From Phoronis australis (lineage: Eukaryota > Animalia > Phoronida): a stretch of 64,000 nucleotides of DNA. Positions 8,401 to 60,006 of the stretch are shown here, in pieces (position 1 is the stretch's first letter; each line of letters starts with the position of its first letter). The stretch spans positions 26,646 to 90,645 of the forward strand of contig NMRA01000519.1 in the NCBI GenBank assembly GCA_002633005.1, given 5' to 3'. A program made the translations under genes and the position numbers. The notes below the pieces were generated by a model. That model saw only the letters and a program-made list of their open reading frames with translations, was not told the origin of the DNA and did not search any database.

Positions 8401-9090
8401 CAGTGCAGGTGGTCCGATGTCATTTGCGGTGCATCAGACGTGCGCAGGCCTCATGGTTGGGCCCATTGCACAAAACACCTGAGCAAAGGCACGAGACCCC
8501 AATTATGGCTCCTCGTGAAGAAAGTTTTCAAGTCTGCCAGTCTCCTTTAGGAAAACGGACAGACGTTTCCATTTGTTGCCATGCACTATATGTTGTAGGC
8601 ATGTAACAATGCCATCCAGTAGGTTGCTCCTTAGCCTATAAAAAGCTGGGCAAGACTCTACCAGGTGTTTAGGAGATTCTACGTCAGTACCACACTCGGG
8701 ACACACAGGGCTCCCCATATGCCCAGTAATGTGTCTGTGTCGGGCTAGGTTGCAGTGGCCCGTCAAAATTTGAATGACGTGTCTTATACCCAATCTATCT
8801 AGACTCAGAAGGCTTTTTGAACCTTTTGGTTCGATCACGTTGGGAAAATTCTCCTTGGTTTCTCTGCAGGAGTTAAGTGATGCCCACTGGGCTGCTGACT
8901 GGGTATGTACCCAGTTGCGTATACTCGTCCTGCAACATCCGTAAGATACCGGGATAGCAGGTTCAGGCACAAAATGCAGAACGCTTGCTCCTATCTTTGC
9001 GAGTCTGTCTGCATTCTCATTGCCATCAATTCCCACATGGGCCCTGACCCAGCGTATATTGACGGTTCTTTCAATTGCAAGAACCGTCAA
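8401..9090 (-). mobile_element. 3' fragment of an RNase H-bearing non-LTR retrotransposon (LOA/Lian-like)
   Basis: ORF 8503-9105 has the RNase H C-terminus WVRAHVGIDGNENADRLAK, LTGHC and a CCHC knuckle (CPECG...HLVESC). The 3'UTR contains caatgggcc...ggcct. Confidence 0.85.
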
Positions 9091-9100
9091 TAGCACGACA

Positions 9101-9200
9101 TTCATACATACATACTTTTATTGACGCACCTTGATTGCTTATAACTCGGGCCTTATTGCTTAAATGAAAGCCATACCAACAGTGCTAGCAATAACATGTC
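9101..9200 (-). mobile_element. Short retroposon 3' tail (AATAAA followed by (TATG)n)
   Basis: The minus strand reads caataaaagtatgtatgtatg and abuts the truncated 5' end of the LOA-like fragment. The far boundary is approximate. Confidence 0.4.
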
Positions 9201-13931: not shown

Positions 13932-14055
13932 AGTAATGATGGACCTCGGGTGCTAGCAACTTTCGGTGATAATGCGTATACTGTAGACAATTGTACGTTA
14001 TCGTAAATCAGTTCTTCAGCTTATTCCAGCAAAATCTGAATTGACGATAACCGCT

Positions 14056-14726
14056 TTTAGTTTATTAAAATCATTTGCAAACAAATGCACGGAATTCGCC
14101 CACTACATAAACAGTGAATAAAGAATATCACACGGAGTTTCAATTTTTCTTTGTGTTTTGCTGCTGCATCTCCACCTTTCGTCTCAGTTCTTGCCATCTG
14201 TGTAAACCAAAAGCCGTTAATTACAACTCAGACATGGAACACCACCTGACTAATCGACTAGTTCCCTCCTTTTACAGATCGGACCGCCTACAACAGAAAT
14301 GTACTAACATAATGCGCAGCAGGGCAGTAGGTATAACTCGCACATTACATTTTTGCTTTAAAGTTATTGCAATATAGTATTTGTTCAATTAGTAACGTGT
14401 GATCTGCCACTGGGAAAATGACCAGCACGTGGAGGTATTATGTTATCCTTCATTACATGCAGTAATGTCAATCAAGATATGAGAATTTTGAAACACTTGC
14501 CAAACACTAATTTGTACACTTTTTGATAAAAAAGCTTTTTAATAGAGTCAAATCACAAGCCTTTTGACAGGTTGACATTAGTCATGCTCTCGATTATCTG
14601 CGGTTGTTTCTCCATGATATCCATTACCTCCCCTGTCACCTTAGGCACGCCCACTTTGCCATTGCCTCCGCTTACCATGGCAACCTTTTTGACAGATGCC
14701 AGTGGACACGCCAGTTCTGCAACCAT
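14056..14726 (-). pseudogene. Duplicated copy of the last two flotillin-1 exons (pseudo-exons or alternative terminal exon)
   Basis: 14726-14553 encodes [57 protein letters not shown], a paralog of 20651-20487 with an intact AG acceptor but an altered donor. The exon starting at 14197 is a paralog of 20133-20062 with two 1-bp deletions. Confidence 0.85.
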
Positions 14727-17872: not shown

Positions 17873-20004
17873 CAACGTTACACAGCGATGTCTCGTGTGA
17901 TACACTGTAATGGCCTCCAATACATGGAACCATAGATTACTATAGTCTATGATGGATGATGGTTTGATAGATGACGTTCCCTCTCCCCTCGAATGCTATA
18001 TGGTAAGATTGGGTCAAAACCCGTGGTGTTTGGAGTATTTATCAATCTTGGTATCTAGGAATTCCTTCGGTGTATAGATTAATAAAATAGCCTGAAATTT
18101 AAACAAATCCGTTTCTAGAGTGCCTGTGGCTGGAGGTCAGATGATTTTTACCCCCAATTGTATACTGTGTACGGTGTGAATGTTTGCCATATAAACGCAA
18201 AATTACTCCTGCGTGCAAAGCTGCACTTGGTTGTATAGTTACAGTGTACACCACCTTCAGAAGAGGTGGAGATGTAAACTTACTCACATGCAAATATACA
18301 CCTGACGCAAGTAACCGCGACTGTAATAGTAAAGTATGCAGTAACGATCACTCAACTAAAAATTTCGTTTCTTACGGGTAATTATTTTTTCCGATCTCAT
18401 CTCTTCTTAAGGCCTAAAACCACTTACAATTCTCTTTAGATGTCAAAAGGAATATTTTATTGTCATGTATGGTTTGAAATTATAACAAGGTTGCGACTGG
18501 GCTGCTGCTGCAGGGTAAAATTTACGGTGCTGTGGTTCTACTAGATACTGCACTAAGAGTTACAAACACGTTCCCGTTTTTTTTTTTGGTCCAACGTCAG
18601 AATTCCTGACAGAAGTTATACATTTTCGGCACCCGCACCTTCCGGGCCGTCTGCGTACACATACAATCACGGTTTGTCCAATTCCCCGAGGCTGTCAGCC
18701 CCCCTCATGGTATCCTAGATCATCCACTGTATGCACATGTATTGATAACTACATAAGACCGAATCAGTCCACTCTGTAAAAGTTTGATGTTCACTTACAT
18801 GTAAGACGCCGAATTTCCAAAAGCCAGCACCCAGCTTAAACGCTTCTCGGCTAAGTCAATCTTGTATTTAAGCCATTAATAATTATATGAGTATCAGTAA
18901 TCACACACAAAAAGCAATAGTATACGTGTACTGAAACCATGTTGTTGAAACAAAATCCGCGAACAATATTTCGGACACAACTGTTTATATGCGATTTCCA
19001 TCGAGAATACTACTGGACCGACCAATTTACCACATCCGCTATGCCCTCTAGGAATTTTGCTCAACAAGACCTACCAAGCAATCGGCTGTGACTGAAATAA
19101 TTCCAAGAATTGTATACCTGAGAACAGACACTTGCGTTCTTGACTCCATCATGTTATCAAGACTGCGCTTTCAAAATCCTGTACCAATTTATTACAAGTT
19201 TGCTCAAACGGTCAATTACGGTTTTCGCTTATAATACGTTCGAAGAATACTAATTGCGAAACTAGTATACCTTGTAGAAGGATATCTACAATTTGACAAC
19301 TTTCAAACCACTCTCCATCTACGAAAATCCCATTATAAAATTTGTTTTTCCTCCAATCTTTCTAGATACAGTGTGTACTTTCCATTTACGAGATAGTTCC
19401 AAATGACTTTGGGGATCGACACCCGTGTCAAGATTCACGGAATGCATATTGTACATGTAGGTTCTATAAGTACATGCATCTTCATTTTACTATCTGTTGC
19501 TTGTGTCAACATTGAAGTGAAATCTATCGAGCACTGGCATCCAATATTAATTTTGTTTTCACTCGTACAAACGCGATGTAAATTGACAATAATGGGACCA
19601 TGTCTACCCACAGGTGTTAAGGTGCTGCATACATGTACGTGTACTGTACCTGTGTAGACGAGGTTTCCAACTGCAGACTACAAAACAAACGACAGCTTGT
19701 CAGCTCATTTCAGAAGAAGAAACTTCATGCATGTGACGCCTTCTTACTTGTTTCTGACTATGAACGGTTTCATGTATTTGACTTTTTACAAATGACATCA
19801 GACGGGAGTTTTCTTTAAGTTTAAGGAGGAAGTAATTCAGGTTGAATTAAGATACGGCAAGAATAGTAAGTTAGACATAGACCAGCATTGATCTTAGTGA
19901 TTTGCCTTCTGTGCAGTGCTTACTTCAAACTTTACGTTATCGTAATTCAATTCTTCAGCATATTCCAGAAAAAAATACAGTTTTAGATAACAAATTGTCC
20001 CCTT

Positions 20005-20010
20005 TTTATT
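20005..20010 (-). terminator. Polyadenylation signal AATAAA of FLOT1
   Basis: Plus-strand tttatt about 50 nt past the FLOT1 stop; also retained in the duplicate at 14061-14066. Confidence 0.5.
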
Positions 20011-20061
20011 AAAAATCACATACGAATAAATGCAAGCAATTCGCCCTCTACATCAAAAGTA

Positions 20062-23000
20062 TTACACGGGGGTTTCAATTTCTCTTTGTGGTTTGGATGC
20101 TGCAGCTCCACCTTTCGTCTCAGTTCTTGCCATCTGTGTAATCCAAACACGGTTAATTACAAGTCAGACATGGGGTACCACGTGACTAATCGACTAGTTC
20201 CCTCCTTTTACAGATCGGACCGCCTACAACAGAAATGTACTAACATAACAATGCGTAGCAGCGTAGTGTGCATATATATATACTCTTTGGTTTCAAATCT
20301 TTGCAAGATAGTATCGTTTGTTTAATTAGTAACTCGCGATTGGCCACTGGGAAAGGGACCAACACGTGGGGGTAATATGTTTTCAATCATTACATGCAGT
20401 TGTGTCAATCAAGATATGGGAAACACTAGCCAAACACTAATTTGTATAGTTTTGGATATTTTTTTTAATTGAGTCAAATCACAAACCTTTGACAGGTTGA
20501 CGTTAGTCATGCTCTCGATTATCTGTGGTAGTCTCTCCATGACATCCATTACCTCCCCTGTCAACTTAGACACGCCCACTTTGCCATTGCCGCCGCTCAC
20601 CATGGTCACCTTTTTGACGGAAGCCAGTGGACACGCCAGTTCTGCAGCCATCTTTTCAAAAAAGCTAATGATGAAACATACGGGGAAAGAGGCCCATTTA
20701 TATGTGACGAAGGCTCACCTCGCACGACGTTGAGTTGTGTTTGTAAAATAAAGTCGTGGCACATTAACGGATGGTTCATGGTTGAAGTATAAGCATGTCA
20801 TTGGAAGAAATGAAACATTTGTTCCAATCTCATTGCATTTATTGCTCTTCTAGTTCACGACACAATGTGTAATGCATCTTGAATTTCCAAACGTTCAACG
20901 GAGTAAAATCTCTTATGTTCAATTTGATTATAGTTACTAAATAACGTAAATAAGGAAACAACGAGTCAAAAATTTGGAGCCCGGAAAATCAGTGTTTAGA
21001 TATTCAATAGTTCATGTAGCATTATTGGGTATACATGAAGTTAGTGTACATGTAAGTTGCGTTATATGAATTCTGCGTGTATGGAGTCTACGTGGGTGTT
21101 AAACAGACGGTCATTGCTAAATCCTTTGCACTGCGTTTGGTTAAGGAAACTTAGCCCATGATAAAATGCAATATTTGAAGCTGACAGGTTAATACGTCCC
21201 CGCCTGGAAACATTCTCGTTGAGGCACCAATATACATGTATACGTGGGGTTTCACGTCATTGTCGTGTTAATGTACAGGAAGCAGTTAGTCAACAGTAAA
21301 CTGGCTAACCTTGGGAAGAGAGTCCAGAATCATCTCTACCACAGCCGCATCCTTGTATTCCTTAAAAGCGCTAGCCTTCATGGTGAGTTGTTCGGCATCT
21401 GCCTTCCCTTTAGCCTCTATGGCGATTGCTTCAGCTTGACTTCGCATCTGTATTGAAGGGAAGAGAGCAGGGCAAATTTCAGTAATATAAGGTTCACAAA
21501 TGAAGCATGGGAGAGACTTTAATTTCCTGTCGCATTGTGTCTACGATCCCAGTTTTTGAGATTTTGAATCAAGCGACCAGCTAAAACCACTCGAGTTTAA
21601 ATGAAAACCTTACCATAAAACTGTACTAGGGACGTTGAAGTCACTTGTAAAAAATACAACCCTTATTGCATTTTCACGTCTTGTTGAGATTGGAAGTGAA
21701 TAAGTGGTGAACTTGGATAATCTTGCTGGGCAAGTGAATCACATTTCTATCATCCGTATCACTGCCATATATTACTGTTTCCTGATGGTTCTAAGATTGT
21801 CTTTCTCTCGTTTCTCTTACGTACGTTAATGGCGTCAGCTTCAGCCTCGGCTTCAAGTACAACTCGCGTCCTGTGCAATAGGAAATGGAAAGTGTCGTCA
21901 CCATAGGAAAATTTGAAATAACAGTTTTGGAGCAAACTCAGAAAACATAAACCCGCGTTAATAGGCTAGAATGTGAAAGATTTCAGAGTTATTCTCATAT
22001 GACTGATTGCTTGACAAAATGGCTGACATTCGTTTCATAGGACTGATTGTATGGTAAGGTGGCTGACATTCTCTTGATATGACTGCTAGTAAAAGAAAAT
22101 GGCTGAGAATCTAATGATATGACTGAATGTATGACTCGAGGGCTGGGATTTTTGGGCACTCTGAAAATCAATTGCTCTTGTAAAATAGCGGTAATAAAAT
22201 GTATTCCACTGCATTTCCTATACATGTACATGTTCTAGATTTTTAACGGAATTTCGAAAATTTTAATGGATGTAAAGAAGCAAAGGTGGAAAACTGAAGA
22301 CAGCAGTGTGTTATTAATAGTAGAAACAACGACCCATACTCTAATACACTTAAATCACTTGAATTTGTTAAATGTTCCCATCCTCATCCATAAAGCATTG
22401 AAAAAATTAAAAGACATAGGTGTTTAGATCTTACTTTTCGGCGGCAGCGATGGTCTCCAAACGATATTTCTCCGCCTCTGCTGGTTGCTTCACGGTCGAC
22501 TCTAACTCCTTTTCCTTTCTCAAAATTTCCTGTTCTTGCACGAGAATTTGCTGCGCTCGTTCCACCACGACGATTTCCATCTCTTCCTCTTTAATCTTTT
22601 GTTTCGTTGTGGCTGCCTGTGTGTGCAATAAATCTTGTTAGCATTCTAGGTTAGGGTATAATTTTTGTTCTCGAAAATGAACTCTAAAAAACCCTTGTGT
22701 TTTACTCCAATACAGACTCAAAACAGTTATGATGTCGCTTACGTTAGGGTCAACGGGGATAACACGTACTTTCTAAACCTAGTTTGCACATAATCACCTC
22801 CGCAATAAGTATATACTTTAAATATCGTATTCATACATGTACTCGCGTTTGTAGCTCAAATTTAGATGTCACCAACTTAGACTATATGTGCAATATTACC
22901 GGGTGTATTCATAATGTGCATTCAATAACACACTTATCTTAGATCGCATTAAATCAGGGGGGGAATGGCAAACATAATTTCGAGTTTGATTTCAAGTTGA

Positions 23001-36800: not shown

Positions 36801-39800
36801 ACCGGTTTAGCGGGGTATTGCACACAAGCATCTCGTCATTGACAATAAAAATTGTGATTGCGAAAACCGAATGGAAAGGTGGCCGATTTGCAGGGGTCAA
36901 GGCGAAACCTTGGCAACTAGCATAGGCATAGGGACCGAGATGGGATTGTCGAGATAATAAAGAAAGAGCGACACAGTTCATTATTGGTGATGGTTTGCTA
37001 TTTTCGGGGAAGAATCGGGCTCTTTTTGTTAGGAGGCCCCAGTTTTTGCGTCTTATATACTATCAATGTTTTATTTTTAAGCGAACCATCTTATGAAAAA
37101 CACTGCCACTCGGTGTCCGGTTTCACATACTTGCCGAATGACCTATTTTATTGAATTCGTAACATTATGGTCGGTAAACACACAATTGACGCACAGAAGT
37201 TTTCGATTTTCTCGTCGGTCATTGAAATCAAGTCCTTTCGCGGTAAGGAACATTTTGAGAGACATTTCAAAAGAGTAAAATTCTTATCGAATTTTATGTT
37301 GGTTTTAAACCGACTTTTGCTCTTCAATCGTCTAGTTTTTGAGCGAACTTATTGGTCAGTACTTGAACATTCACCCGATAAACTTCATATAACAAATCAT
37401 TTCACCATGCCAAAATTAACCCTTTCGGTCAAAAATGCATCAAGAGCTTTGATAATTCACTTTTAGCTCATCCCGGCCCAGTGTTGACATTAAACATTCT
37501 GTCGGGTATTTTTCTGTCAGCAGTTTGTGCCAAACTAAACCTAAGTGTGTGAGGTGAAATTCATCTTACAATTTGCAGCCTACAATGTTGCAGTTCTTTG
37601 GGAAGCATGAGCCTGCTTGCCACCACACCAGCTTTTAAGGTGTCTACTAAACCGGTCCCGGCCACTTTTCCGCCCGGCGAGATTTTGGCAACTCAACAAC
37701 CATGATTTTAATTAGGTTGAAATATAACCACTATATTTTTTAAATTATGCTTGAATTATACATGGTGATATACATGTTAGGTTTTATTCTCTTGCGATAT
37801 TTTCTTTTTCATTCAGTGTCTCGTGAGTCCAGCAGACCGGACTGGCGTGGCACGGCAGCTGATGGTTCACCAAGTAGAAACGTCTGTAATATTTTATGTT
37901 CTATTAACACTAAGGTAAAAGAGAGTGGTTTCAACTTATATAGTGTCTATTTAACGAACTGAACCATGCACTATAAACATGTTGGTGGCCATAACAGCTG
38001 ACAGTATAAACAAAGAATGAAGCACTGAGGTCATTATGTTACAACGGCGATGTGACGTCAGCAGCTGTAGAATGTAGGTCAAGGTGCTGGATCAAGATTC
38101 AGTTCCCACAAGAATGTCACATGACTGTGAGCAGCACTACCTGTTAGTAAAGCATCGTTGCATCCAGCGCCATCTGTTTGTCGTAAAGGTTTTGGATGAG
38201 CGGGTACCTTTTGCGTTGGGCACTCGCCCAGGACCAAATCCAACGAAAAATGGTGGTTGAGTAGAACTTCACTGGATGGATGCCCAATTGACAAACTGGA
38301 ATTTTTAGAGCGGTTGTGCACTTCGTCGTTTTAGAATGTGTTCAAAGAAAAAAATTATGGCTTCACTGTGATTGCTGATGCCCTATTAAGTTTCTGAAAC
38401 ATCATAATTTACGTACACGCACGTGCATAAAACGGCAAAGGTGCGGAAACTAAATTTTGTGTAGCTGTCGTCGTTGCATCTAAGTAACCGGAGTTCCAGC
38501 AAAGTCACTGTGTTGGAGTGGAGCGCTTATCCAAACTAACGTTATTCACGAACCGTCCACTCTGAGGTCACAAGAAACTGTTCTATATGTTAGAATGGCC
38601 TTAATATAAAAAGATTCTTTTATCAGCAAACTAGGTTTATTGTTTTCAACTGAGAAAACTCGAGTGTTAGGGAGGTTAATGACTTGTCTGCAATAATACA
38701 ATGTACTATTCCAATGACCTTCTGTTTAACTTCCATTCGTTCAAAGTGCTATTTGTCAACCAACATAGAATTTGGGCAGTTTTTACATTATTACACGCAA
38801 ATTATTATTTTGTGGAGTTTTAATTAGGAATTTGATTTTGGATACATATACAAGTCTTGTCACAATTGGTCGTATATACATGAGTCTCTAACGTGTTTGA
38901 GCACTTTGTTTAAGGAAAAACTTCCATTTTGTTATCGCGGCATTTTCTGTCTACTCTTGGCGTTCTATATGTAATTGCATATGGAGACAATGAGTTTACA
39001 CAACTGGCAAGTATGCCGAAAGTGGATCTAAGTGATCCCGATCAGGCTTGACCAAAAAAGCGCCACTGGAATCCAGTTTCAAGGGACACGTCAAAATTCT
39101 TCCTACAAGAACTGCAGTTGCCCTCCCCCCGCATTGCACCTAGATCCAGTGCGTGCGTCGCTTAATTGCTGAGGAAAATTTTGCAAATTTGATGACTGGC
39201 GGCCCAGAGCTCTATGTAGTATCACATTCGTTTGAAAGTTGCTTTCTCGAGACAAAACATAATTTTCTACAAATGTCAGAGATTACGAACCCTATGAGAG
39301 CCGATTGTTTCTTACTGGAGCTGGGCCAGCTACAGAGGTTTGCTCCAGGTACACTTCTTATAAAAGTTCACCCAGTTACAGTATTTCAGAGTTGTTCCAG
39401 TACTTTGATAGTTTTTGGGACTGTAGGGTAAAATTGTGGATTACAGCAGTTGGGGCATCAGGTAGTAATTTTCGAAACTTCCGCTAATATAAATGGTACA
39501 CAAAACGGCCATTATTCGTTACACGAATACATCAACAGGTTAAAACTTCAGTAATTTAATGTACGCTGTAATATCGTATATCGGACAGCAAGCGCTAAAA
39601 ATTGATACGCCTAGTGCTAAACTACAGTTCGACAAGCGTTGAAGTTGGGGTGTTTTCAAGCCTGGGATCACAGCGAGAAATGGTGGGAAATCAGTCCAAG
39701 TCGACCTATCGTTTATTTCGTTGCATCTACCTGCTCGTTGGATCTGTTTTGGGACCAAAGTTTGGCCTATCCCATTATTGTTTGTTTAGGCTAGACTGCG

Positions 39801-40086
39801 TCTCACGCTAATCTAAAAAGCTAAATAGCTGCTTTGTACCTACATGTATGGCCGTCAGCTGTGTCTGAAGTCAGACTCATAACTGATGTATTTGGTATCC
39901 TGATTGTCGAATGTAGTCTCAGTTCAAAATAGGCCAAAAAATCAAAATCAAATCAAACTTTCGACCTTAATCTTTGTTCGAGTGCCTGTTTTTGGTTAGG
40001 GACTGCAAAGCTTTGACCACACCAGACTACTTACCGGAAACAACCATCACTTCATCTGGGCCGCAAGTATAAAATCCACCACACAT
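20062..40086 (-). CDS. FLOT1: Flotillin-1 (SPFH/band-7 plus flotillin coiled coil), 11 coding exons, 444 aa
   Basis: Exons spliced by hand, all GT-AG and phase-consistent: 40086-40035 ([17 protein letters not shown]), 36078-35912 ([17 protein letters not shown]...[11 protein letters not shown]), 34470-34327 ([11 protein letters not shown]...[14 protein letters not shown]), 33851-33732 ([10 protein letters not shown]...[10 protein letters not shown]), 24908-24813 ([11 protein letters not shown]...[14 protein letters not shown]), 23402-23250, 22616-22435, 21870-21825, 21447-21310, 20651-20487 (MAAELACPL...TGEVMD...NLSK), 20133-20062 ([23 protein letters not shown]). The TCGPx[16 protein letters not shown]-terminus fits flotillin-1 rather than MG-myristoylated flotillin-2. 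Confidence 0.96.
27677..27808. repeat. (GA)n/(GGGA)n microsatellite with a small N gap
   Basis: Directly visible in the sequence. Confidence 0.95.
27821..27973 (-). mobile_element. LINE (RTEX-like) C-terminal fragment
   Basis: [43 protein letters not shown], the same motif as the end of the 4189-7460 element. Confidence 0.8.
29798..30060 (+). mobile_element. Penelope-like element relic (pseudo-LTR with decayed antisense hammerhead plus ORF N-terminus)
   Basis: [19 protein letters not shown] resembles the N-terminus of Penelope-like ORFs and matches RVFNEVCVNEGLLPNYTDF at about 62870-62930 (-). A CTGAAGA...GAAA motif lies on the minus strand at 29798-29845. Confidence 0.55.
31287..32246. mobile_element. 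PIF/Harbinger-type MITE (960 bp) in FLOT1 intron 4
   Basis: Perfect 42-bp TIR AGGCCCTGTCACACCTTGACGATTTAGCCAGCGTATGCCGAC (imperfect out to about 80 bp); TTA TSD at 31284-31286 and 32247-32249; no transposase ORF. Confidence 0.92.
33040..33290. mobile_element. Inverted pair of Penelope-type pseudo-LTR fragments with hammerhead-like cores
   Basis: CTGATGAtgaga motif on minus (33043-33081) and plus (33257-33285); the left arm is homologous to 63061-63170. Confidence 0.55.
34823..34940. mobile_element. Mini non-autonomous DNA element with 5-bp TSD
   Basis: Termini CAGTGGTGGAT...ATCCGCCTATG, flanked by CAAAG on both sides. Confidence 0.7.
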
Positions 40087-40888
40087 TTTGATATTTTAGC
40101 TGCAAATTGAAAATGTCTGAGACTAACGTTTCACAGGGATATTTTTTTACATGCACGTGTCCGGCACGTGCATAGCTGAGATGTTCATTTTGTGCATTGT
40201 GCAACAAATGTTGCACGTGCGCGTGAAGGGTATATTAGGCCTACCAGGGAACTAAATCCGGACGAAGACGACAAACTTTGTATTGAAAGTCGGTGAGTTT
40301 AACCAAAAAGCGACTTGTGAATTTATATCACCGCTAAGACATCTGGTAGCTTGGGTCGTCCTTGTCAATTTCTTTGTATTTAGCATGTGCTTGGTTGGTC
40401 GCTTGTTACTTGTTACCCATTTCTATGTGAATGATGTCAAGTGAAAATGTGTTTATTTGATTTACAGACTTTCTGAAGCTTTTTCACTTACCGGTATAGC
40501 CCCCACCACTTTTTCAGAGCTTCGCCAGCCATGGTCTATGGGTGGCACAACACAGGGGTCTAGGGGCTATAGCCCCCACTTTTTTCAGTACTGCGCCGCC
40601 CATGACCCGTAAGAATTAATTTACGACATCATTATTTCCTTTTCGGTCTGTATGTACACGTTGCAAAACTATGACCACACAGACCGATTGATCCTAAACC
40701 ACTGTAAACGACTGTCTTTTACGGCACGCTTTCAAGCTCTACAAACTCCTATACTTATCGTTTGAATTAGAATTCTACCGATTTTGCTCCGACGTCAAAT
40801 CATAGAAACCGTTAACTTTTTCCAAAAGGGGAGATTGGAATTCTCAGAATAACCTAAGAATCTAAGCGGGAGCTGATTCTGATTGCAA
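40087..40888. promoter_or_regulatory. Candidate divergent (bidirectional) promoter / 5'UTR region between FLOT1 and the SLC1A-like gene, with three CACGTG E-boxes
   Basis: About 800 bp separate the two putative start codons. CACGTG occurs at 40154, 40165 and 40214; the first two lie inside the inverted repeat ATGCACGTG-tccgg-CACGTGCAT. Transcription start sites are not observable. Confidence 0.5.
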
Positions 40889-43800
40889 ATGTGGACTTGC
40901 GTGTATTTCCAGACGCAGGAATGCTGCAGGAGAAAGCTCCTCCTCCTCCTGACTATCAGCGGTGTAATTGGTGGCGTGGTTCTTGGACTGTGCCTCCCAT
41001 TGGTCCAACCGAGCGGCGACGTGATCTTATTGGTCAGTTTTCCGGGTGAAATATTCATGCGTGCATTGAAGATGGTCGTGGTTCCCTTGGTTGTCACTAG
41101 CATTGTCTCAGGTAGGCCAAACATGGTCGTCTTAGCTGTTTTGTGCTCCACCGGCAAATCACTTCATTTACTAGCAGCAGAATTGCCCATTAGAACAAAA
41201 ACGCTATCACTGTTGAAACGCCATTTGTACTTTTTATTTCAAACTCGAAATTAACGTGTACGTATGAAATCATATCTAAATTTGAGACTTCAACCTCTTA
41301 AAATCCGTGACATTCAATGAGGTCACTTCAGTCGTCACACATGTGGTTACCCTGTCTTTAACTCTCATCAGTTTTATTTATGCAAAATATCCATTTTGTT
41401 AAGCGTATCGGGTCTTGAAAAGGCTGCACGACCCTTAAGCATATTTGTGCATCAAAACAACTACAAATCTCAGTCACGAGAGCTGGAAGTTCAAAATTAG
41501 GCCAGTTGTTTGCCACATTGTATCCACGTGACCATTGTTAGATGCTTTTGCGACCCCTTATAGATGAAACGTTTTACACTTAGATCCTTGTAAAGTCTTA
41601 ATTAACATAAGTTAGAAGTATGCATGTCTGATATTTTTGTTGGGAAAATATTGATTTTTGAGATTCCTTTGTCTAGATCTTTACTTTATTTTTATAACTT
41701 TCAAGGTCATTGAACGTTAAGGTCTCGTAATAATAATTCATATATTTCCAAATGTTGCCAAAAATGTACATAACAGACACACCTTTATTTTGTCAGAATG
41801 CGAACTCCTGATGCATTCATATATTCATTTGAAAGAAGGTGGCATCATGTCTTGCCGCCGGAACACTTGCTATATTCAGTACTGCTACCGAATATTCCAG
41901 TCACTGAGTGACTGCAGAATGAACTGGCAGTCGCTTTCATCAATCAATAAACGTATAACACACTTGCTAACATCTCGCTGGGAATTTTGTAGAAAAACGG
42001 CTTGATCAGGTAGTAGCAGCATGTTAGCGTAGTAAGGATGTCGAATCTATTGAGGATTCTCATTGGCTGATTAATGTCAGACAAAAATGTGACTTATGTA
42101 TGACATAGAGCAATGGTTGAAATTAATTCAATTTATATCTGATTTCAAATGGTTTATGGATAGCAATTAATGAATTATGTACGATGTTAATAAGACCATT
42201 ATATCATAAATAGTTCTTTATGTCTGTAATAAGTCTGCAGTATATGTGTCTAACATGAGTCTGATTTATGCGTGAAACGAATCCGGATAATGTCTGATGG
42301 CAATAATTTTGTCAGACAAAAATCAAGAATTATGCCGCATAGCACCAACCATACGCGAGTGCCAGCTCTTCGGACTTCGCGTAAGTTCTTACTTCACATC
42401 TACATGTACATGTACAGCTGTAGTGTCGGGGTGTTCAATTGAAACATTCATGCACCCTGCTAAAGGAAAGCTATGAGTAAACTGTCAATTTTGGAAACTA
42501 CGAATTCTACTTTAATCTTGACCTTTATTGCAGAAACTGTGAAGTATTCTTTCGAACCAAACCATGCGACAAAATTAGTACAGTGCATGTACAAAACCAT
42601 TTTGTGACATTAAATAAATCAAAATTCACGATAAGGCTGCATGACGTCACAAAGAGTATTGAGTACAAGAAGGCCTGCGCTTGAGTTTTCTCAAAAACAC
42701 GCTGAAGATGTTTTTCATTTCCAAGTGAATTGAAATAAGTGCTCAGGTTCAGCTGCATGTAATGTGCATGTAGCTGGTATTCTGATTTTCGAAACCTATC
42801 ATCAAACTCAGCAACGAAGAAACTCATTGATCCTGAATTACAAAGTGCCGACTTTGTCGTACGCTATAATTTAATGCGGTCTCGCAAGGCGTCGTGCCTG
42901 CATGCTGCAGCTTACTTTGTTTCGTCCGATCACATTCCGTGGATAGTAATCGCGGCTTAGTGCGTGTGCCTTCTGACATAAAAAGGAAGAAGGTTTACCT
43001 ACAAAGCACGGTGATGTGATCTGGCACTGTGGCAACAGTTAAGGAGATGGCAAACCTTTCCAAACGTTATTTTTCGGGAAGTGTATTAAAAATTCAACGT
43101 ATTGTGTTTAATTTAAAGGTATTACCAAATTCACCCCCGGTTCACTTGGAAAGATCGGTGGTCGTCTGCTGCTGTACTACATATCGACAACAGTCGTCGC
43201 TTCTATACTGGGAATATTTCTAGCCTCGACAATTCGGCCAGGCAGTGGAAACGTAGAAAATACAGAAGATGACGTTCATTGGCTGCATGCGTCCAGTAAA
43301 TTAGGCACCCTCGATGCTTTTGTTGACGTAATCAGGTACTACGAAAATAGGGTACTCAAAGAACAAAAAAGATTTCAACATTTTTTGTCAGTAGATTTCA
43401 ATTTAACCTCGTGAACCGTTGTAGGTACATGTACATGTACGTCTGAAATGAGCAAACATATACCTTATTAGGAATGCCCCATCCCTCATATCCCGATTAT
43501 CTGTCAAAAATCTGCGAGCATGCCTGCGGAAATTGCTTATAACGTTCGGTTGGTTTCTGATTTACTTGTTTATATATCTACGAAAATCGATAGATTTTTG
43601 ACCATTAGAAGTTAACCTTGTAAAAATTGGTAATGTTTCAGTGATTTTAGTAGTAGTTGCTTGAAATTGAAAAACTTTTATCCGATCCGCAAATAGTTGT
43701 AAAGAATACCTACAGCAGGACCCAGTACACTTAGACGATATTTGCCTATCTAAAATAACTCGCAAACATTGATGTAATTCTCAAAAATATACTCACAATT

Positions 43801-46800
43801 CAATTGGTAATAAATACATTACATTTCGACTTAGGTACAAGATTTTTCTTTTTAAATTCACAAACAGGTAATCAAAACATAATTGAGTCATTAAATCATG
43901 GATTCGATTGTTGATTTCTGATCTACATGTTTATGTAACTACGGAAATCGGCTGATCGTAACTGATTTTTTGACAATTAGAGGCGAATCTTTTAATAAAT
44001 GACGAAGCTTCAGTGAACTTAGTTGCAGGCTGACATTGGGAAAATTCAATCTATCGTCAGATCAACTAGTAGCTAAGTACACTAAACTATTTTTGTCTGT
44101 CTGAAATAAGCCTCAAGGATATTGATGAATGTCGGTCGTGTTTAAACGAGATATTTTGAATGAGTCCCAGAGGCACTACATGTATACCAGGGATTTTGCG
44201 ATCTCACCTTTTCAAAAAAAATCTTCTTCCAAGAAGGACCATAAAGAAGTAAAGTATTTCCGAAACTGGATCACAATGAAATGAATCTTGACCTTAGAGC
44301 CAGCGCACGCAGGTGTGTACGAGCAAAACTGTCTGTGTCAGGTCAGTCATGGCAGAGCTGACCGGAAACTAGCTCTAGTTCATCGGGACATTCGTGTTTT
44401 CACACTGTTAGATCTCAGCAGCAGTTACTTGAGGCAGCTCCTCGTTACCCGTCGGTGCACTGGTCCTAAGCCCATTCTTACTCTCCGTGAAACTTTGGTG
44501 TTTCACGGTTTCTTAAATGGCTGCTTCCCCGGGATTGCCCCTCCCCCACCCACAGTAGGGCGGACGTGGGAGATTAGGTACAAATGTGGTTGCAACTGGA
44601 GCACGGGGTGTTGGCGGAGGCAGTGGCGATGAAGGGGGGGAGGATAGTTTGGCCAAGTCGAAATGGGTTGTGCCCCCCATAATTTTTGCTTCTCTACGAG
44701 CCTGTTACAGTATAATAGCACTTACGTGTACAATATACTCACAGAAATCTTACTAGGGTTGAATTTATTTTTTGAGAAATAATTAAGTGGAGGAGTGTGG
44801 TCTTTATACAAGAATTCGATATTATCGTAAGGATAAGAAAGGATCATTCAGCGAGTTTTGTAGCGCACCTTCCAAGCTAATGGTCGTTACACATCTGTCT
44901 AATTTTGCAACAAAACGTGTTTGAATGCAGTGCTGTTATCAGAGTTTCATGCGCTCATGACTAAAATATTGCATGCCCCGAGCCTACGACATTTGGTAAA
45001 ACATACATGTTGAGGGAAACGTCACTAAAGCATTTTACATGTAAGGTCAATGTGTGCATTTTAAGACGAGAAATCTTTAAACAGCTTTAAAAGAGGCAAC
45101 AAAAAATCTTAAACGGTGAATAACTTTTTCTGTGTCGCCTATCCGCTCTACAGTTATTTTTATTGAAGGACATTTAGAAAACGATTTCTATACGTGAAAG
45201 TTGAATTAAGATCTTTGTGATGCAAAATTATCACAGAAGTAGCTTTCACTTTCATTGGAAATTTCCAACACGTTCGATTGTCCGCGTGGAAGGTGTCTTC
45301 AAGGTTTTAAAACATCTTATATAGAATGGTGGTCTCTTTTTCATTTCATTGGTATTTTACTTTAATTTTTGTTCTATCAACGGAATGCGTCTGCATTTAT
45401 TTTGCATGGTAGAGGTATGTTTCCGGAGAATATTTTCGAAGCAACATTTCGGAGCCAGAGAACGTCATACCAGGTGAAAGCAAAGAAACCGGATATGACA
45501 GGCGAAATAATGGACCTAACCAATGATTCCTTGAGGAACAATACGGAAAGAAAACTCCGTGTATTGGAATATAAAAACGGAACTAACACTCTCGGTAAGA
45601 CTACAGGAATCTGTGTGACATGAGAACAGTTGTTAGGTAAACCATTTTGATATTTCTTGAGGGGTTGTATAAATGTATTAAGCTAATGGCAGATATTTCC
45701 AGATTATTAACTCATTGAATAAATAAACACAATATGCCAAATCTACGATTCCCTTGCGGCCTCTCGTCTGCTTAATGTTGAATTTTATTTTGAAATTTTC
45801 GTAATTGCTACCCTCTGAACAACACTTTTACCCTTTCATTATTTATGCCAAATATGTCTCTGGTTGTGCAATTGTTCATGAGATTTCATGCATTTAATGA
45901 TTTCGCTCACACGAGGGAGCTGCGACCAAGTCGGGTACAGGTCATTGGACCATTCATCACGGTATCAACGGAATTTCACCCTGAGTTACTTTAACACAAG
46001 TGAGAACTGTGTCTCGTGACATAGCAGCGTTTTAATGGGGGTTAAGCAGTTCTCTGACATGTATATTGTTCGAAGTACTTTTTGTGTAAGAACAAGTTTA
46101 GACTGTTGAATCAGGATCTAGTAGAATATATCGTACCTCTTTCCCAGCCTCCGAGGACATCAAATACGGTTCACCTGATTTTCTTTCGATTTAAACTGGT
46201 GAATGACTGTCCACGTCACTCAATCATGACTTACACGATTACTAGCTAACAAGTCAAGAATATTGTTCCCATCAAAATATTGTGAATGCATGGGTAATAT
46301 GCTATATTGTCAAGTTTAAAGTCTCCTACCGTTGCAGTGAGTACGTGCACCTTCAGTTGCCAATTTATAGGATACAGTAGGGCTATACTGTATCTAAACT
46401 TCCATTTTTATTGAACAGTAGCCTCCATTGGCTTAATTACAACATTTCTGTGAAATAGACACATACAGATCGTAACTAGGTGCTTGTATTTCATCAACCT
46501 ATTTCCTATTTGTGCACGGTTTTCCACACCTTTGGCCGATTCTAGCAGGGTAGTTCCCCCTGAAGAAATACTCCAGTGCAATGGCTAACATCCGCCCGTG
46601 AGTTACGATTATTTTCGACCTCTTATGTCTTAGTTGCAGGGCCACCACGTGGATTAGAAAGTGAAATTGCCCCATTGACGTGAGCGTTTACGCGAAAGAT
46701 CAGTAGGCGCTGTTGATGTTTCTTAAAAACAAGCAAATACCAAGGAATTTTGAAAACGTTTGCATTTTGTACAGAAATTTTATAAGCGTCTACTCTCGCT

Positions 46801-49800
46801 TCCAGGCCTCATTACCGTTTCCATAGTCATTAGTATTGTGATGATGAAGCTGAAAACGAGACCGGAAACGATAATGCGCATCTTTTGCGAAATGAATGCA
46901 GTCATCATGAGATTAGTTCAACTGATTATGTGGTAAGAGGACAAAGCATTACAATTTATCCATCTACAACTGGTAGTAAAGGGACTGAGGTGTTTTTGTG
47001 AAGATGTAGAAAACAGACAGTGCGTTAAAGCGTCCATTGCAATAACAGAAGTCAAATAAAACGTACGTGCTTGTAATTATGCGAGAAACTACATGTAAAG
47101 TGGTTTTCTGACTAAAATTTCGTTTTCTCTTGTAATATGTACCGGGCGCATTACAGACGTGCCACTTAATAATCTGCCGGAATGCATGGAAGTCCTTGTG
47201 GAGACTGAATGAAATTTTGATTTTAATAAGCGCCTCTTTCAACAAATCCAAGTACGTATATTTTTCATTGTAGGTGTTCTCCCATCGGGATAATGTCTTT
47301 GATAGCAGGCAAGCTGGCGACAGTGTCCGATAAAGCAACCGTTGCTAGGCAACTCGGAGTGTTCATGGCAACTGTGGTTGGAGGTATTGCTGTCCATACT
47401 CTTGTGACCTACAGTGTCTTATACGTGGCGTTAACTCGGAAGAATCCTTTCAAGATTCTTCGTGGATTGAGTCAAGCCTGCTTGACCGCGTTTGCAACCG
47501 CTTCAAGGTAATTTGACAATTATAACTCTGAGGCAATGTGAGGAAAACCGTCATTTTAAGCTTGGAAGAGGCACAGAGACTTGGAGTTTTTCGGACGGTT
47601 GTAAATCACGAGTGTTATTTTGAAGGTGACATGCAAGCAGTGGCGGATTAAGAGGGGTTCCAAGGGGGTCAAGCAACCCTTAAAATTCTCTGAGATTACA
47701 TTAAGCAGTACGGGGTTGCAAATGGCTGAGGCAAATTCCAGGCTAATACTCTGCCCTGCCCCCTCCCTAACTGAAAACCCTGGATCCGCCCATGGCAAGA
47801 TCAATGAAAACAGTTATTTATGAACCCTGATCTCAGTATACAGCTCTCCCACTTGGCCTCTGTAAGTAAACACAGCTTGCCAAAATTTATATAGTCCTGG
47901 CTGAAAAGATTGCTTTATTACCCCATATGGATCAGTGAATGGACAAATCCAAAATGTATGGCTTATTTCAATGAAATTAAAGCTGACTGTATAGGTCGTC
48001 TGAATTACCTAATTGCGCGTGCACACATTCAAAACACTTGGGACACAGTAGTAAAACGTTTACATGTTCTAAGCATTGTGAGGAAGCCGTGCATAAGTAA
48101 AAGGTTCCACCAAAGTAGCCTCAATATAAGCACTGATTAGACGGGCAGTAGAATTGTTTTAAAGTCAAACTTGTTTATTTTATAACTGCCTAGGGTTTTT
48201 GTAATAATAACTTTTGAAATCAGATTAAAAGCATATAACGTGTGCCTCATTTCGTCTAGAATTAATTCCATTGTTGCGTAGATCTGGGCAAAATTCAATT
48301 TCGAAATTTCGACAACGTCCTGCGCCCGATCATTCACAAACACTTACATGTATCGACAAGGTGTTAGGTCAATCGCCACATTAAACGCTTACTAAAATTC
48401 GACAAAAACGCTGCTTCATGATGTCTTCAACTCCCAAGTCCTACACAATACTACATGCACATTTACTTGAGCCTCTGCAGTTACTGAATACAGCATTTTT
48501 GGAATTAGTCTCGTTCTCAAAACACATCATGTTTTGCTAGAAAAAGAAGCAAATGGTATTTGTGATGCTTTGTGTATTGTTCATCGTTGTGGAATTGACC
48601 CCATGCAATCTAGCGCCTTAACTTGAGTGAAGTCGCTAATTTTCTAATTGTTGTTTCCAAAGCACCGTTTCGTCCAATTCTCTAGTGCCGCTACCATCCC
48701 TGCCACACTGCGATGTCTTGAGAACAACCTCTACATAGATCCTCGTGTGACCAGATTTACCATTCCTATTGGGGCCACGGTGAACATGGACGCAACGGCA
48801 CTTTATGAGACAGTGTCTACACTGTTTATTGCACAAATCCACGGGATTTCGCTGGATGTTGGACAGATTATCACCATATGGTATGGAAGAAAATTCACGA
48901 TATGCTCATGGACAGTGGTAGGGCTTAAAGAGATTCAGATCTTCGTTGTTAATGAGATTTCAGCCGCAGCTAGTTCTGGTATTGTACATTGGCTGGATCT
49001 ATTTCCTTTGAATACTAACATAGTCAGACGTGTTCAACACAGAGGGAAGAGCAAATGATATTGGTAACCAGAAGGTGAATTTAGTGAAAACTTGAAAGCA
49101 CTGTTCAAGAACAGTGGTGAAGCACAAATCAAAATTGTTTGGACGGGTCATGGCTTTTTGCAATCATTAGGAGGGCCATGACTCCGAAGCCCCCCTTGGC
49201 ATCGACGGGTGATCGTTGGTGTAGGATTGAGTAAACACAATTCATTTTCAAGTCTTAAAGTAGATTTTGTGGCTTAACGTGGGTTCTTTTCTCGATAATC
49301 ATCGATTAGGTCTCAGTCAAGTTGCTGTTACTACGGTGACCTGAAACACAAATCTTCATGTCTCTTTCAACCCCTCAGTATCGCACTGGTAAAACACCCA
49401 TTACGTACAACCCCGGTAATATAAAAGTATTCTTTATTTTTTTAAAATTTTTAGCAACAGGTAAACTAAAGGCTATTAAATCTCTTTAACTGTATTAATA
49501 TTTTTTTGAGGAACAAGCTCATGAGGGGAACTCTTGAAACAACCTGGTTATTATATTAGAAAAATTAAATAACATACATGTAACACTTTTTTACATACAT
49601 GTAACATCTAATCACTAAAAGACAGTACACTAAACAAAACATAGAAAACCTACTACATGTATTTAGTTAGACATGGCACTTTCTTTTACCAAGAGTTTCG
49701 TTTATGTTTATCGTCGTGACTATTACAAATTAGGCAGCTGTTATATTTCAGCTGTAGCTCCATACTTGCAAGTGTTGGAGCTGCTGCCGTGCCAGGCACA

Positions 49801-51105
49801 GCCATTGTAATGATGATCATGGTGTTAGGGTCGGCAGGACTTCCGGTTGAAAACATCAGCTTGATTTTAACAGTAGATTGGCTAATGTAAGTAATGCCGC
49901 CTTTTCTATAACACTAGTCGAGTGCCCATAAAGCATTGCTTGTCAATGTTTAGGGAAGAAAATCTTTTTGTCGCAGGAAAGATGCTAAACCCAAATTTGG
50001 CTTATCAACGGATACTGTTTAACTTTTTCCTTTTTCACTTTTAAATTTTTGAAATGCATTAATGGAACGGTAAGTTTTTTGAATATAAGATGTTTGAATC
50101 AAATATTAAAAGGGGTTGTGGAATACCTTTCAGCGGCAGCGGTGGCTAACACTTCAGGCGAATATTACGACTTGACACAGCATGCCTAAAAAGCAGCATT
50201 TGATTTAAGATGTACAGCGTCGAGGGAAAGTGTTTTGGCAGAACAATGCTTTCATCCATCAAGGGAGATGACATTGGTGCATCAACGGGCAACAACGCTA
50301 ACTTTATGTAAAATCGGTGCGGTGACGGCTTTGAAAATTATGTTTTTATGCTTTGAGGTGGAAGTCTTTATTTTGTTTCCCTGCAAAAGGTTTTGTTCTC
50401 AATCAGTCATGGGTATATCCTGGGAAAACACACCTCCGCAAACTTGATTTGTTCGGGTGAGGCAAAAAGCAGTCTGGGACTTCAGCTTGACCCACATGTA
50501 ACACATCTGTAGCGAAAGCTGCAATTTTGCAAGTAGCTGGTGTTCAATATGTGTAGTATAACAAATTAACATTAAAGCTTAGCAGTAATCGCGTGACCAT
50601 AGGTCATGAGTCGCCATCGTTGCTTGAGTGTATGTCTTTAATCTACAAAATTGTTTTGCCTTTCGTTAACAACATAACTGCATTTTTCGAAAATTTCAAA
50701 ATCCTAGAGGTATACGCAATGTTGTACAAACTGGGAAGTGTCCAAAGACATATGCTGCTTTAATTGACCTTTGCATAAGTGTTTGTGATTGAGCTACATC
50801 CTTTGACAGCAGCTACCATCCAGTTGGGGTCTATGGTGTAGGATCACGAGTTTCAGTTTTGAACACGACCGGGGGAAACAAAGTCAAGGATTAACGATGA
50901 CACGCTTTTTTGTTTCAGGGGACGGTTTCAAGCCGTTGGCAACATAGTTGGAGACAGCTATGGTGCCGCCATAATTTCACATTTTTCCGGCCACGAACAG
51001 AGGAACACAGGAGATAGAGTTGACGTCAAACAATCAGATGAACCAGAAAAACTGATAGACTTGCATCCCGTCGGCAGACTGATGGGTTCTAACACACTTG
51101 TTTGA
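40889..51105 (+). CDS. SLC1A / EAAT-like (dicarboxylate/amino acid:cation symporter family) transporter with atypical substrate site, 8 coding exons, about 499 aa
   Basis: GT-AG, phase-consistent exons: 40889 (first in-frame ATG; start uncertain, acceptor also at 40912)-41111 ([26 protein letters not shown]), 43119-43335, 45413-45594 ([12 protein letters not shown]), 46806-46932, 47274-47507 ([11 protein letters not shown]...RKNP...TAFATAS), 48686-48880 (SAATIP...[15 protein letters not shown]), 49752-49886 ([10 protein letters not shown]...VDWL), 50919-51105 ([16 protein letters not shown]...NTLV*). The HP1, TM7, HP2 and TM8 signatures of SLC1 are all present. Confidence 0.93.
47638..47794. 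mobile_element. Mini non-autonomous DNA element with 5-bp TSD (same terminal family as 34823-34940)
   Basis: Termini CAGTGGCGGAT...ATCCGCCCATG, flanked by GCAAG on both sides. Confidence 0.75.
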
Positions 51106-51727
51106 TTGAAAGATTTGTTTTTGTGAAAGGGTGTTAGTACACTTGTATATATCAGTACACACTCAATGTACGTAGTAATTATGTATTCAAATCAATCGAG
51201 ACCTAAAAAAGCAACGGAGGCATGAGTGAGTGAGGGAGCGGGCGTGCAAACACCGATATAATATGTGTCTGTACATACATGTATTTACTTCAACCTGCTT
51301 GTAATGCATCATACATGTACCAACAAAGACTCTATCAAATTGTCCAATTTACTTTCAAAACAGAAATGACAAACACATGTCAACATTACGGCGTGTCTTT
51401 AAATGCAGATTCTGCTCTAAATAAATTGGAATTCCAAGCGCTTCTCGAAACACCCGTGGTGGACCACGATTCTCGTGTTGGGGATTGGATTAGGAGAGCC
51501 AAGTAACGGATGCCAGCACTTCTTACTCGTTCTCTGCTGTATGTATTTATTTTTGAGCAGGCTCCATTTTATGTCTTTGCGGTCGGAATCAACACAGTCA
51601 GCAGCGTACAGCACAATCCCCGTGTTGCTGGGAGGTTGGGCCTGTCCCAGCCAAACATGAATACATTTTCCACTATAACGAAAGAAGTTCTGATGTATTA
51701 AACTTGTAAAGCAAGCTCATGATCATG

Positions 51728-58079: not shown

Positions 58080-58148
58080 CTGGTTTCGATGGGTTTACCA
58101 TGATTGAACTCTGTTTAATTCTGTTGGCGACAAAGGCAAGTCAGTACT

Positions 58149-60006
58149 TGTTGTGTATTGGCAATGCTACTTGTGGTTTTCCTTACAATATAGTCGCGTT
58201 TCAACATTCAAAACGTTTGTTAACATCCAAGATTTGCTTGTTCATTATCAATCGGAATATCCTTTATTGTTGAGCTGCGATGCTTCACCCTACGGTGTTG
58301 GCGCGGTATTATCACACGTCTTGGAAGTCAGTTCTGAAAGACCAATAGCGTTTGCTTCTCGGACATTAGCGCCAGCTGAGAAGAATTATGCACAGAGTGA
58401 TCGCGAAGCATTGGCTATCATCTTTGGGGTGAAACACTTCCACAGTTATTTGTATGGACGTAATTTCACAATAGTAACGGACCATTTGCCTCTTTTAGGG
58501 ATTTTACGTGAGGGCACCGCCATACCGGCTATGTGTAGCTCACGTATGAAACGATGGGCCCTAATGTTGTCAGGTTATAACTACGTTTTACGACACAAGT
58601 CTGGACAGTCTAACGGCAACGCCGACGCNNNNNNNNNNNNNNNNNNNNNNNNNNNNNNNNNNNNNNNNNNNNNNNNNNNNNNNNNNNNNNNNNNNNNNNN
58701 NNNNNNNNNNNNNNNNNNNNNNNNNNNNNNNNNNNNNNNNNNNNNNNNNNNNNNNNNNNNNNNNNNNNNNNNNNNNNNNNNNNNNNNNNNNNNNNNNNNN
58801 NNNNNNNNNNNNNNNNNNNNNNNNNNNNNNNNNNNNNNNNNNNNNNNNNNNNNNNNNNNNNNNNNNNNNNNNNNNNNNNNNNNNNNNNNNNNNNNNNNNN
58901 NNNNNNNNNNNNNNNNNNNNNNNNNNNNNNNNNNNNNNNNNNNNNNNNNNNNNNNNNNNNNNNNNNNNNNNNNNNNNNNNNNNNNNNNNNNNNNNNNNNN
59001 NNNNNNNNNNNNNNNNNNNNNNNNNNNNNNNNNNNNNNNNNNNNNNNNNNNNNNNNNNNNNNNNNNNNNNNNNNNNNNNNNNNNNNNNNNNNNNNNNNNN
59101 NNNNNNNNNNNNNNNNNNNNNNNNNNNNNNNNNNNNNNNNNNNNNNNNNNNNNNNNNNNNNNNNNNNNNNNNNNNNNNNNNNNNNNNNNNNNNNNNNNNN
59201 NNNNNNNNNNNNNNNNNNNNNNNNNNNNGCCGGAGATACGGTACTTGTGAGAAACTTCGCCGGCTCACCTACCTGGGTCCCTGGTATGATCATAGAACAA
59301 CGAGGACCCGTGTCATTCTCGGTGGAGTTGCCCGATAAACGGATTTGGAGGCGTCACGTAGACCACATAGTACGACGCACACCGGAAGACAACCCATCTT
59401 CAACCACGTTTGGCCCACCGCCAAGTAACTTACCGCCGCCACAAGCCTTCGTACCGCCAACTCCGTTGACGGAACAACCTTCTACGCCTGTGGTCGATCA
59501 TACACATCCCACTGCGGATTCGAACGCCACTACCGTACGATTACCCGTAGAAAATCCACCAACGGATTCGTCGGTAGTTGTGACACGTTCCGGAAGGAGG
59601 TCAATCCAACCAGACAGGCTGAACTTTTAATTACTACTTATTATAACTAGCTCCAGTCATCAGTAGGATCACCTTACAGCAAACAGCAGTGTAATACATC
59701 GTTTTAGTTATGACTGGACACTTAGTATCGTTTTACAAGCAAGACTGCTGACAGTGTGTTACATGAATGTTTGTGTTTAGTTTGAAGTGTTCCTCCATGT
59801 TTATTTACGTTTGCTGTAGTTAGCTAAGGGTAGAGGGATGTTGTGTATTGGCAATGCTACTTGTGGTTTTCCTTAGAATATAGTCACGTGGTATTTATGC
59901 CCACAAGCCACGTGCTCATCCCCTTCTTGTATTAGTTCTCCAAGCGAATAGACGTATTATAATTTACTCTCATCTGTGTTGTTTTACTGGTTCTACGAAC
60001 ACAACA
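58149..60006 (+). mobile_element. Internally deleted Ty3/Gypsy (Mag-like) LTR retrotransposon
   Basis: 5-bp TSD GTACT (58144-58148, 60007-60011). 3' LTR 59839-60006 (168 bp, TGTTGTGT...ACACAACA) follows the PPT aagggtagaggga. Only about 51 bp of the 5' LTR remain. RNase H (CDASPYGVGAVL...ERPIAFASRTL...EKNYAQ...DH) and the integrase C-terminus (WVPG...GPVSF...WRRHVD) are present. Confidence 0.93.
58629..59228. other. Assembly gap (600 N)
   Basis: N run inside the Gypsy pol region. Confidence 0.99.

Follow-up and report, generated by a model that had tools for sequence, protein, structure and literature searches.

The stretch analysed here (the window) comprises 64,000 nucleotides of the phoronid Phoronis australis (contig NMRA01000519.1, positions 26,646 to 90,645 of the forward strand) and consists of intron-rich animal DNA with a guanine plus cytosine content of ~39%. 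Its plus strand harbours a transcribed gene of the SLC1 family, called the SLC1 gene below, whose substrate pocket is rebuilt. Judged by its residues, it is an SLC1 member that shows in full none of the defining signatures of the excitatory amino acid transporters (EAATs), the ASCT carriers of neutral amino acids, or the dicarboxylate carriers DctA and CuqDCT.

The gene consists of eight coding exons with GT..AG at all ends, which join into a single open frame that runs uninterrupted for 491 codons. Coding exon 1 (40913-41111) encodes the first two transmembrane helices (TM1-TM2), opens in frame with an ACG, has its first in-frame ATG at 41057 and matches Pfam SDF positions 1-51 (E 2e-8). Coding exon 2 (43119-43335) bears the TM2-3 loop, where a conserved Asp is replaced by Thr, and a TM3 retaining the Na3 motif YYISTT; coding exon 3 (45413-45594) bears TM4 and an extracellular loop, and the joints of both are present in the reads. 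TM4c-TM5 are found in coding exon 4 (46806-46932), and TM5-TM6 with the serine motif of hairpin 1 (HP1) in coding exon 5 (47274-47507). TM7 occupies coding exon 6 (48686-48880), hairpin 2 (HP2) and the beginning of TM8 coding exon 7 (49752-49886), and the remainder of TM8, the tail and the stop coding exon 8 (50919-51105). The 3' untranslated region (51106-51425) shows read depth to ~51400, contains a putative signal AATAAA at 51420-51425 and is overlapped by a contig of RNA run X1 (51082-51231). Six of the eight exons match Pfam SDF (PF00375) in chain order, five of them above the curated cut-off; coding exons 3 and 8 gave no SDF match at E 0.1, though both align to EAATs.

All seven coding joints are present in RNA runs X2 and X3. 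The joint 49886/50919, which builds TM8 and which the preliminary description wished to see confirmed by RNA sequencing, is spanned by 9 reads in X2 and 16 in X3. Run X2 holds about 200 reads of the SLC1 gene per 12.8 million, as estimated from the depth table, while run X4, of the same study and species label, shows no joints and next to no exon depth. Expression of the SLC1 gene varies, then, among runs of one study.

Residues are numbered here as in GltPh, D394, R397, T398 and G359 being equivalent to D444, R447, T448 and G415 of EAAT3. The numbering was checked against solved chains: the exon portion 49753-49884 aligns with GltPh 344-376 and EAAT3 403-442 over spans of equal length, and TM8 aligns gap-free to EAAT3- and EAAT2-type proteins. 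TM8 carries a triple loss, D394G (GGA, 50920), R397Q (CAA, 50929) and T398A (GCC, 50932), on which DNA and RNA agree. Further changes are G313A in TM7 (48792) and G354A, A358T and G359A in HP2 (Ala, Thr and Ala codons at 49786, 49798 and 49801, respectively). Retained are the TM3 sodium motif, S277 and S278, T308, N310, M311, D312, T314, Y317 and E318, as well as D390, the Arg at 395, N401 and D405. The YE codons of TM7 (48804 and 48807) keep the residues of the EAAT proton carrier. Moreover, all the SLC1 sodium ligands (TM3 Ser/Thr, N310, M311, D312 and D405, as listed in PMC10723334) are present together with the HP1 serine motif.

The TM7, HP2 and TM8 motifs, as well as the retention of N310, D312, T314, N401, D405 and the TM7 Glu, agree in codons and alignment with what was first described. 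A base-call error had been considered unlikely, and the reads agree with the assembly at every pocket codon; an assembly error as the source of the changes is ruled out by the same reads. In the RNA variant list, which is complete at 96% likeness, none of the 16 differing sites lies in a pocket codon. A second TM8 exon with D-R-x-R-T was found neither within the window nor in the reads. The outcomes named beforehand as damaging to the description are absent as far as they could be checked: there is no alternative TM8 exon, the gene is expressed, and the ratio of replacement to silent polymorphism (pN/pS) is below 1.

As regards the known classes, the EAAT signature of TM8 (D444/R447/T448) is absent from the SLC1 gene, as are both ligands of the EAAT K+ site, D444 and T448. 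The ASCT signature combines an intact D444 and T448 with a neutral 447; of these the SLC1 gene has the last alone, 444 and 448 being lost. From the DctA/CuqDCT signature, the neutral 444 and Ala 448 are present and R447 is absent. The view that such a pocket could not bind glutamate in the EAAT manner is supported. The TM7 Glu, pointed out earlier as the EAAT proton site, is indeed kept, but coupling of the EAAT type does not follow from it, because D444 and T448, which bind K+ (PMC10160106), have both been lost.

The beginning of the protein is less regular. A further 5' exon (40246-40292, plus strand; 3' end exact, 5' end approximate) contains no in-frame AUG and has an in-frame TGA as its third-last codon. 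Its joint to coding exon 1, 40292>40913, is spanned by six X2 reads and two X3 reads, with a longest side of 47 letters, and is flagged 'between: not known'. A genomic in-frame ATG at 40889 is removed by splicing. The ACG at 40913-40915, common to assembly and reads, opens coding exon 1 in frame about two codons from the start of the abalone paralogs, with which the SLC1 gene shares a very short N-terminus; the reading frame through TM1 shows conservation, at 45% over 64 residues against an abalone protein. An out-of-frame AUG opens an overlapping frame of 42 codons (40921-41049, plus strand) that ends just before the ATG at 41057. The gene had been described as having eight exons and being otherwise intact; the open frame without stops stands, but there is a ninth, 5' exon, and intactness is not shown at the start, as no in-frame AUG precedes codon 49 in the spliced form. 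Translation probably begins at the non-AUG codon ACG 40913 or in an unsampled 5' exon bearing an AUG. ASCT2 uses non-AUG starts, and the ACG, with an out-of-frame AUG 8 bases downstream, may represent a non-AUG start under translational control.

The closest relatives among those fetched are EAAT2-type proteins, with 44% identity. In the trees, which like the approximately unbiased (AU) tests were made by a quick method, the SLC1 gene falls within an EAAT2-like group (Shimodaira-Hasegawa-like approximate likelihood ratio support 89-94) on a very long branch, with no firm sister and outside every starred set. For the AU tests the four pocket motifs were dropped and 10 of the 31 rows (long or redundant rows and the outgroup) left out. 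Sisterhood with the abalone paralog XP_067675944 alone is rejected (p-AU 0.0003), so that the triple-loss state likely arose twice. The free tree separates the SLC1 gene from the abalone rows, and a single clade with all five of these is not rejected (p-AU 0.25). Exon 6 gave 238 matches, mostly bacterial, with a best identity of 67%; exon 7 gave no ortholog among 83 candidates; exon 5, searched against 50% representatives, gave at most 54% identity among the 150 matches listed. In the profile search 7999 candidates were scored, and among the best 120 none was closer than 44%. An atlas search with the abalone protein returned EAAT clusters only.

The pocket was compared in 266 relatives with TM8 aligned, a set that is biased by the queries and from which gapped or unaligned rows were left out. 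The state at 394/397/398 is D-R-T in 162 and G-R-T in 95 of them, single other states account for 9, and G-Q-A occurs in none. The pocket is unusual as a combination, but its novelty was overstated at first: an animal protein that has lost D394 and carries T398A was already on record (mosquito CuqDCT, PMC3737229), and taken singly neither D394G (which the 95 G-R-T relatives combine with R397) nor R397Q (seen in other SLC1 proteins) is peculiar to this gene. The accompanying changes are likewise all present, yet G354A is ordinary (A354 in 79/266), while T358 and A359 are found in 5 and 3 relatives, respectively. Nine fetched abalone SLC1 proteins are G-R-T, and the Haliotis asinina paralog XP_067675944 has S-Q-C; in these paralogs the pocket is altered in many ways. 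The Haliotis SLC1 expansion (P0194, P0277, P0283-P0290, P0293, P0299) shows D394G or S, often with T314A/G and E318Q, and all its members are labelled EAAT-like. Furthermore, some 80 SLC1 rows (P0033-P0120, mostly bacterial; the named ones largely Bacteroidota) combine D394G with retained R397 and T398. No substrate assay of D394G bacterial SLC1 proteins, nor any substrate test of the abalone expansion, was found in the literature searched, outside which subscription papers mostly lie.

A DNA pattern forcing Q397 recovered 32 metagenome loci (L001-L032), 16 of them SLC1-like with ~25-31% identity where long enough; 14 of these are D-Q-T and two G-Q-T (L005 and L013, apparently one protein). 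These 16 loci belong to a distant group of SLC1 proteins, all of them with R397Q and with Phe or Tyr in place of the TM7 Glu. The pattern search of prokaryote genomes gave 28 matches, of which three are SLC1: L039, which is DctA-like with S-Q-A; L044, a fragment with G-Q-T; and L048 (931-6113), from a tardigrade symbiont bacterium, with three tandem SLC1 genes whose pockets read D-R-T, D-Q-T and G-Q-T. The latter trio forms a small natural series of pocket settings. The open reading frames listed around L039 and L048 gave no metabolic clue from gene context.

Selection was assessed from the RNA differences, 12 of the 16 being exonic, with 8 silent and 4 replacement changes. The resulting pN/pS is 0.16-0.20 (P 0.002-0.007 under three transition biases), and two of the replacements lie in the unconserved tail, the other two being conservative (Leu-Val and Tyr-Phe). 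Since silent differences dominate, the protein looks selected, and the SLC1 gene is apparently under purifying selection. At seven conserved TM1-6 columns the gene departs from canonical proteins, mostly by mild swaps. Ten of its 23 odd columns are also odd in XP_067675944 (P 0.014).

The roles of the altered residues are known from canonical transporters. D444 holds the amine, R447 the side-chain acid, and S333 and N451 the alpha-carboxyl group (PMC12036983, PMC10723334, PMC6066518), D444, R447 and N451 determining specificity (PMC12036983, PMC10723334); the ASCTs alter R447 only (PMC12036983, PMC10723334, PMC6066518). K+ is bound by D444 and T448, and protonated E374 pairs with the carbonyl of G415 (PMC10160106), a residue that is Ala in the SLC1 gene. 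D444 mutants are transport-dead (PMC2151622), and EAAT3 R447C is locked in exchange (PMC11297037). In the mosquito carrier CuqDCT (D444N and T448A, R447 retained) dicarboxylates are preferred, with Michaelis constants of 51 uM for succinate and 1085 uM for glutamate, and their binding is attributed to R447; glutamate nevertheless gives the same maximal current (PMC3737229). EAAT3 D444S has no transport, while D444S/T448A carries succinate and has lost the K+ response (PMC3737229). Each pocket change of the SLC1 gene has a precedent, and the combination is without assayed precedent in the literature searched: no assayed SLC1 protein with all three changes was found there, and neither R447Q, R397Q nor R479Q occurs in any of the papers listed by the searches. 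No description of a monocarboxylate cargo for an animal SLC1 member was found in that literature either; monocarboxylate transport by DctA is a possibility.

From these precedents by analogy, a tentative prediction, put somewhat short of an even chance, is that the SLC1 gene encodes a carrier that depends on sodium but not on K+, takes a small monocarboxylate lacking an amino group (such as lactate, pyruvate or some other 2-hydroxy or 2-oxo acid) and probably works as an exchanger. Sodium at Na1 and Na3 would prime the site, as in other SLC1 proteins, and the single carboxylate would bind S278 and N401. As in CuqDCT and EAAT3 D444S/T448A, D394G together with T398A would do away with the K+ site and with recognition of the amino group. 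R397Q and G359A would eliminate the site for a second carboxylate, with a neutral polar contact remaining. A monocarboxylate is predicted since R447, the anchor of the second carboxylate, is lost on top of D444 and T448; exchange would be more probable than concentrating transport, as R397 and the K+ step are both gone. The compensating T448A, the kept alpha-carboxyl ligands and the occurrence of the state in unrelated proteins argue for a working carrier. Among the substrates without an amino group or second carboxylate that the preliminary description envisaged, a non-amino monocarboxylate would be the best candidate.

Several observations weigh against such a carrier. The prediction sums two separately known effects, which may not add, as no assayed protein carries the triple change. 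A313 is found in only 1/266 relatives, and L039, the sole bacterial S-Q-A case, looks degenerate; both DNA patterns fixed Q at 397, and Arg to Gln takes one transition. The polymorphism test comprises 12 sites, and X2 and X3 may be one animal, given the mixed sites common to both. Of the 116 columns that 90% of 28 canonical representatives share, the SLC1 gene departs at 23, the canonical proteins having a median of 2 departures (five have 17-27). Its branch (2.1-2.3) ranks first or second in length in each of the two trees, and single-exon and profile searches, in which the spliced protein was not a query, found no ortholog. Finally, in the sampled message, with 8 reads over the 5' joint, the first in-frame AUG is that at 41057, codon 49, inside TM2.

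Part of this evidence would suit a decaying duplicate that has lost its start codon and is transcribed with little or truncated protein, its pocket changes being drift: no in-frame AUG precedes codon 49, the out-of-frame AUG lies at 40921, the branch is very long without an ortholog, and the departures do not cluster significantly in TM7-TM8 (13/47 against 10/69, P 0.10). However, the 491 codons and the reads are free of stops and frameshifts, silent differences dominate although the ACG is common to assembly and reads, the TM1-6 departures are mostly mild, and expression differs between runs of one study, so that decay is considered the least probable of the explanations weighed here. The loss of three substrate ligands together, with G313A and G359A sitting in coupling motifs, could instead point to a transport-dead protein, which might act as an anion channel gated by sodium, as a sensor, or as a modulatory subunit that forms mixed trimers with canonical EAATs. 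The TM2-3 loop Asp that is Thr here is kept in 25/28 canonical proteins; we take this Asp to have a role in anion gating, a point on which no paper was found. The chloride current of EAAT3 D444S/T448A is relatively larger (PMC3737229). On the other hand, the protein retains S278 and N401, residues known to bind substrate, the transport-restoring T448A is present, and comparable pockets recur in unrelated lineages, one bacterium included; a dead transporter is regarded as distinctly unlikely, though less so than decay.

A sodium-dependent carrier with another cargo is judged unlikely as well, but to a lesser degree. Candidate cargoes are amino acids or osmolytes that are N-substituted or neutral (of the opine, sarcosine or betaine type), acids with an amide group that Q397 would hold, and, with low affinity, dicarboxylates. 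The pocket would be roomier with Gly at 394 than with Ser, as in DctA, or Asn, as in CuqDCT; the backbone of HP1 and HP2 contributes to substrate coordination too (PMC10160106); CuqDCT still carries glutamate at ~1 mM; and the variety of pockets among the abalone paralogs points the same way. Against this, the pair of Asp to neutral and Thr to Ala has so far meant loss of the amine preference, dicarboxylate binding is ascribed to the R447 that the SLC1 gene lacks (PMC3737229), and none of the pocket motifs has gained an aromatic residue that could accommodate a quaternary amine. As for the monocarboxylate exchanger, its widest version, in which this gene would be the first animal SLC1 monocarboxylate carrier, started at ACG, and its pocket setting one reached repeatedly in animals and elsewhere, is doubtful.

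SLC1 specificity can be regarded as two switches, an amine site (D444/T448) and a distal-acid site (R447). For three settings of these switches, natural proteins have been tested, namely EAAT, ASCT and DctA/CuqDCT. The SLC1 gene is a natural, expressed instance of the fourth, and bears on the modularity of this code. If the monocarboxylate prediction holds, invertebrates would have a further route for lactate, pyruvate or similar acids. Moreover, genes labelled 'excitatory amino acid transporter-like', in abalone and others, often lack the residues that the name implies.

Around the SLC1 gene, a flotillin gene lies on the minus strand (14556-40128), one exon of which matches flotillin-1 (E 3e-15). 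Spliced minus-strand reads (36076-38139/40033 and 38339-40035) end near 40128 and probably represent flotillin 5' exons; the probable flotillin 5' end and the 5' exon of the SLC1 gene are arranged divergently, ~120 bases apart. A 1 kb duplication (13994-14964 and 19933-20873, 82% alike) bears in both copies a similar minus-strand frame resembling the last flotillin coding exon, possibly reflecting alternative or duplicated 3' ends. At the other side, minus-strand reads at 51412-51508 run into the final part of the SLC1 3' region and contain a CT..AC joint (51440-51508); they differ at several positions, and their source may be a copy of a repeat located elsewhere. Retroelement remains with RNase H domains are found at 8506-9117 (minus) and 58108-58629 (plus), and frames at 4133-6636 (plus), with no Pfam match, resemble a broken LINE (long interspersed nuclear element).

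Compared with known systems, EAAT2 (SLC1A2) and its invertebrate orthologs are nearest to the SLC1 gene by identity (<=44%) and tree, and share its HP1 type, sodium ligands, TM7 YE and R445, whereas at 394/397/398 the EAATs are D-R-T and the SLC1 gene is G-Q-A. With the abalone expansion (XP_067675944, XP_048240288; 37% identity) it has in common a small residue at 394, changes at G359 and the short N-terminus, but in most of these paralogs R397 and T398 are retained and the TM7 Glu is missing, whereas it is present here. ASCT1 and ASCT2 (SLC1A4/5) and EAAT3 R447C also have a neutral residue in place of R447, for which exchange would be the expected mode; the ASCTs, however, retain the amino-group Asp and Thr (D464 and T468 in ASCT2, PMC6066518) and carry neutral amino acids, while the SLC1 gene is without both. 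Bacterial DctA has a neutral 394 and Ala 398 (Ser, Ala) as in the SLC1 gene, but retains the Arg, and the SLC1 gene is a spliced animal gene with D405 retained that is 44% identical to the EAAT2 type and 24% to the DctA-like L039 protein. Finally, the mosquito carriers CuqDCT and AeaDCT (PMC3737229) are, like the SLC1 gene, animal and EAAT-derived, with a neutral 444, Ala 448 and N451, D440 and D455 kept. CuqDCT has Asn 444, keeps R447 and carries succinate, malate and 2-oxoglutarate, whereas the SLC1 gene has Gly 444 and Gln 447, adds G313A, A358T and G359A, and is placed by the quick trees in the EAAT2-like group.

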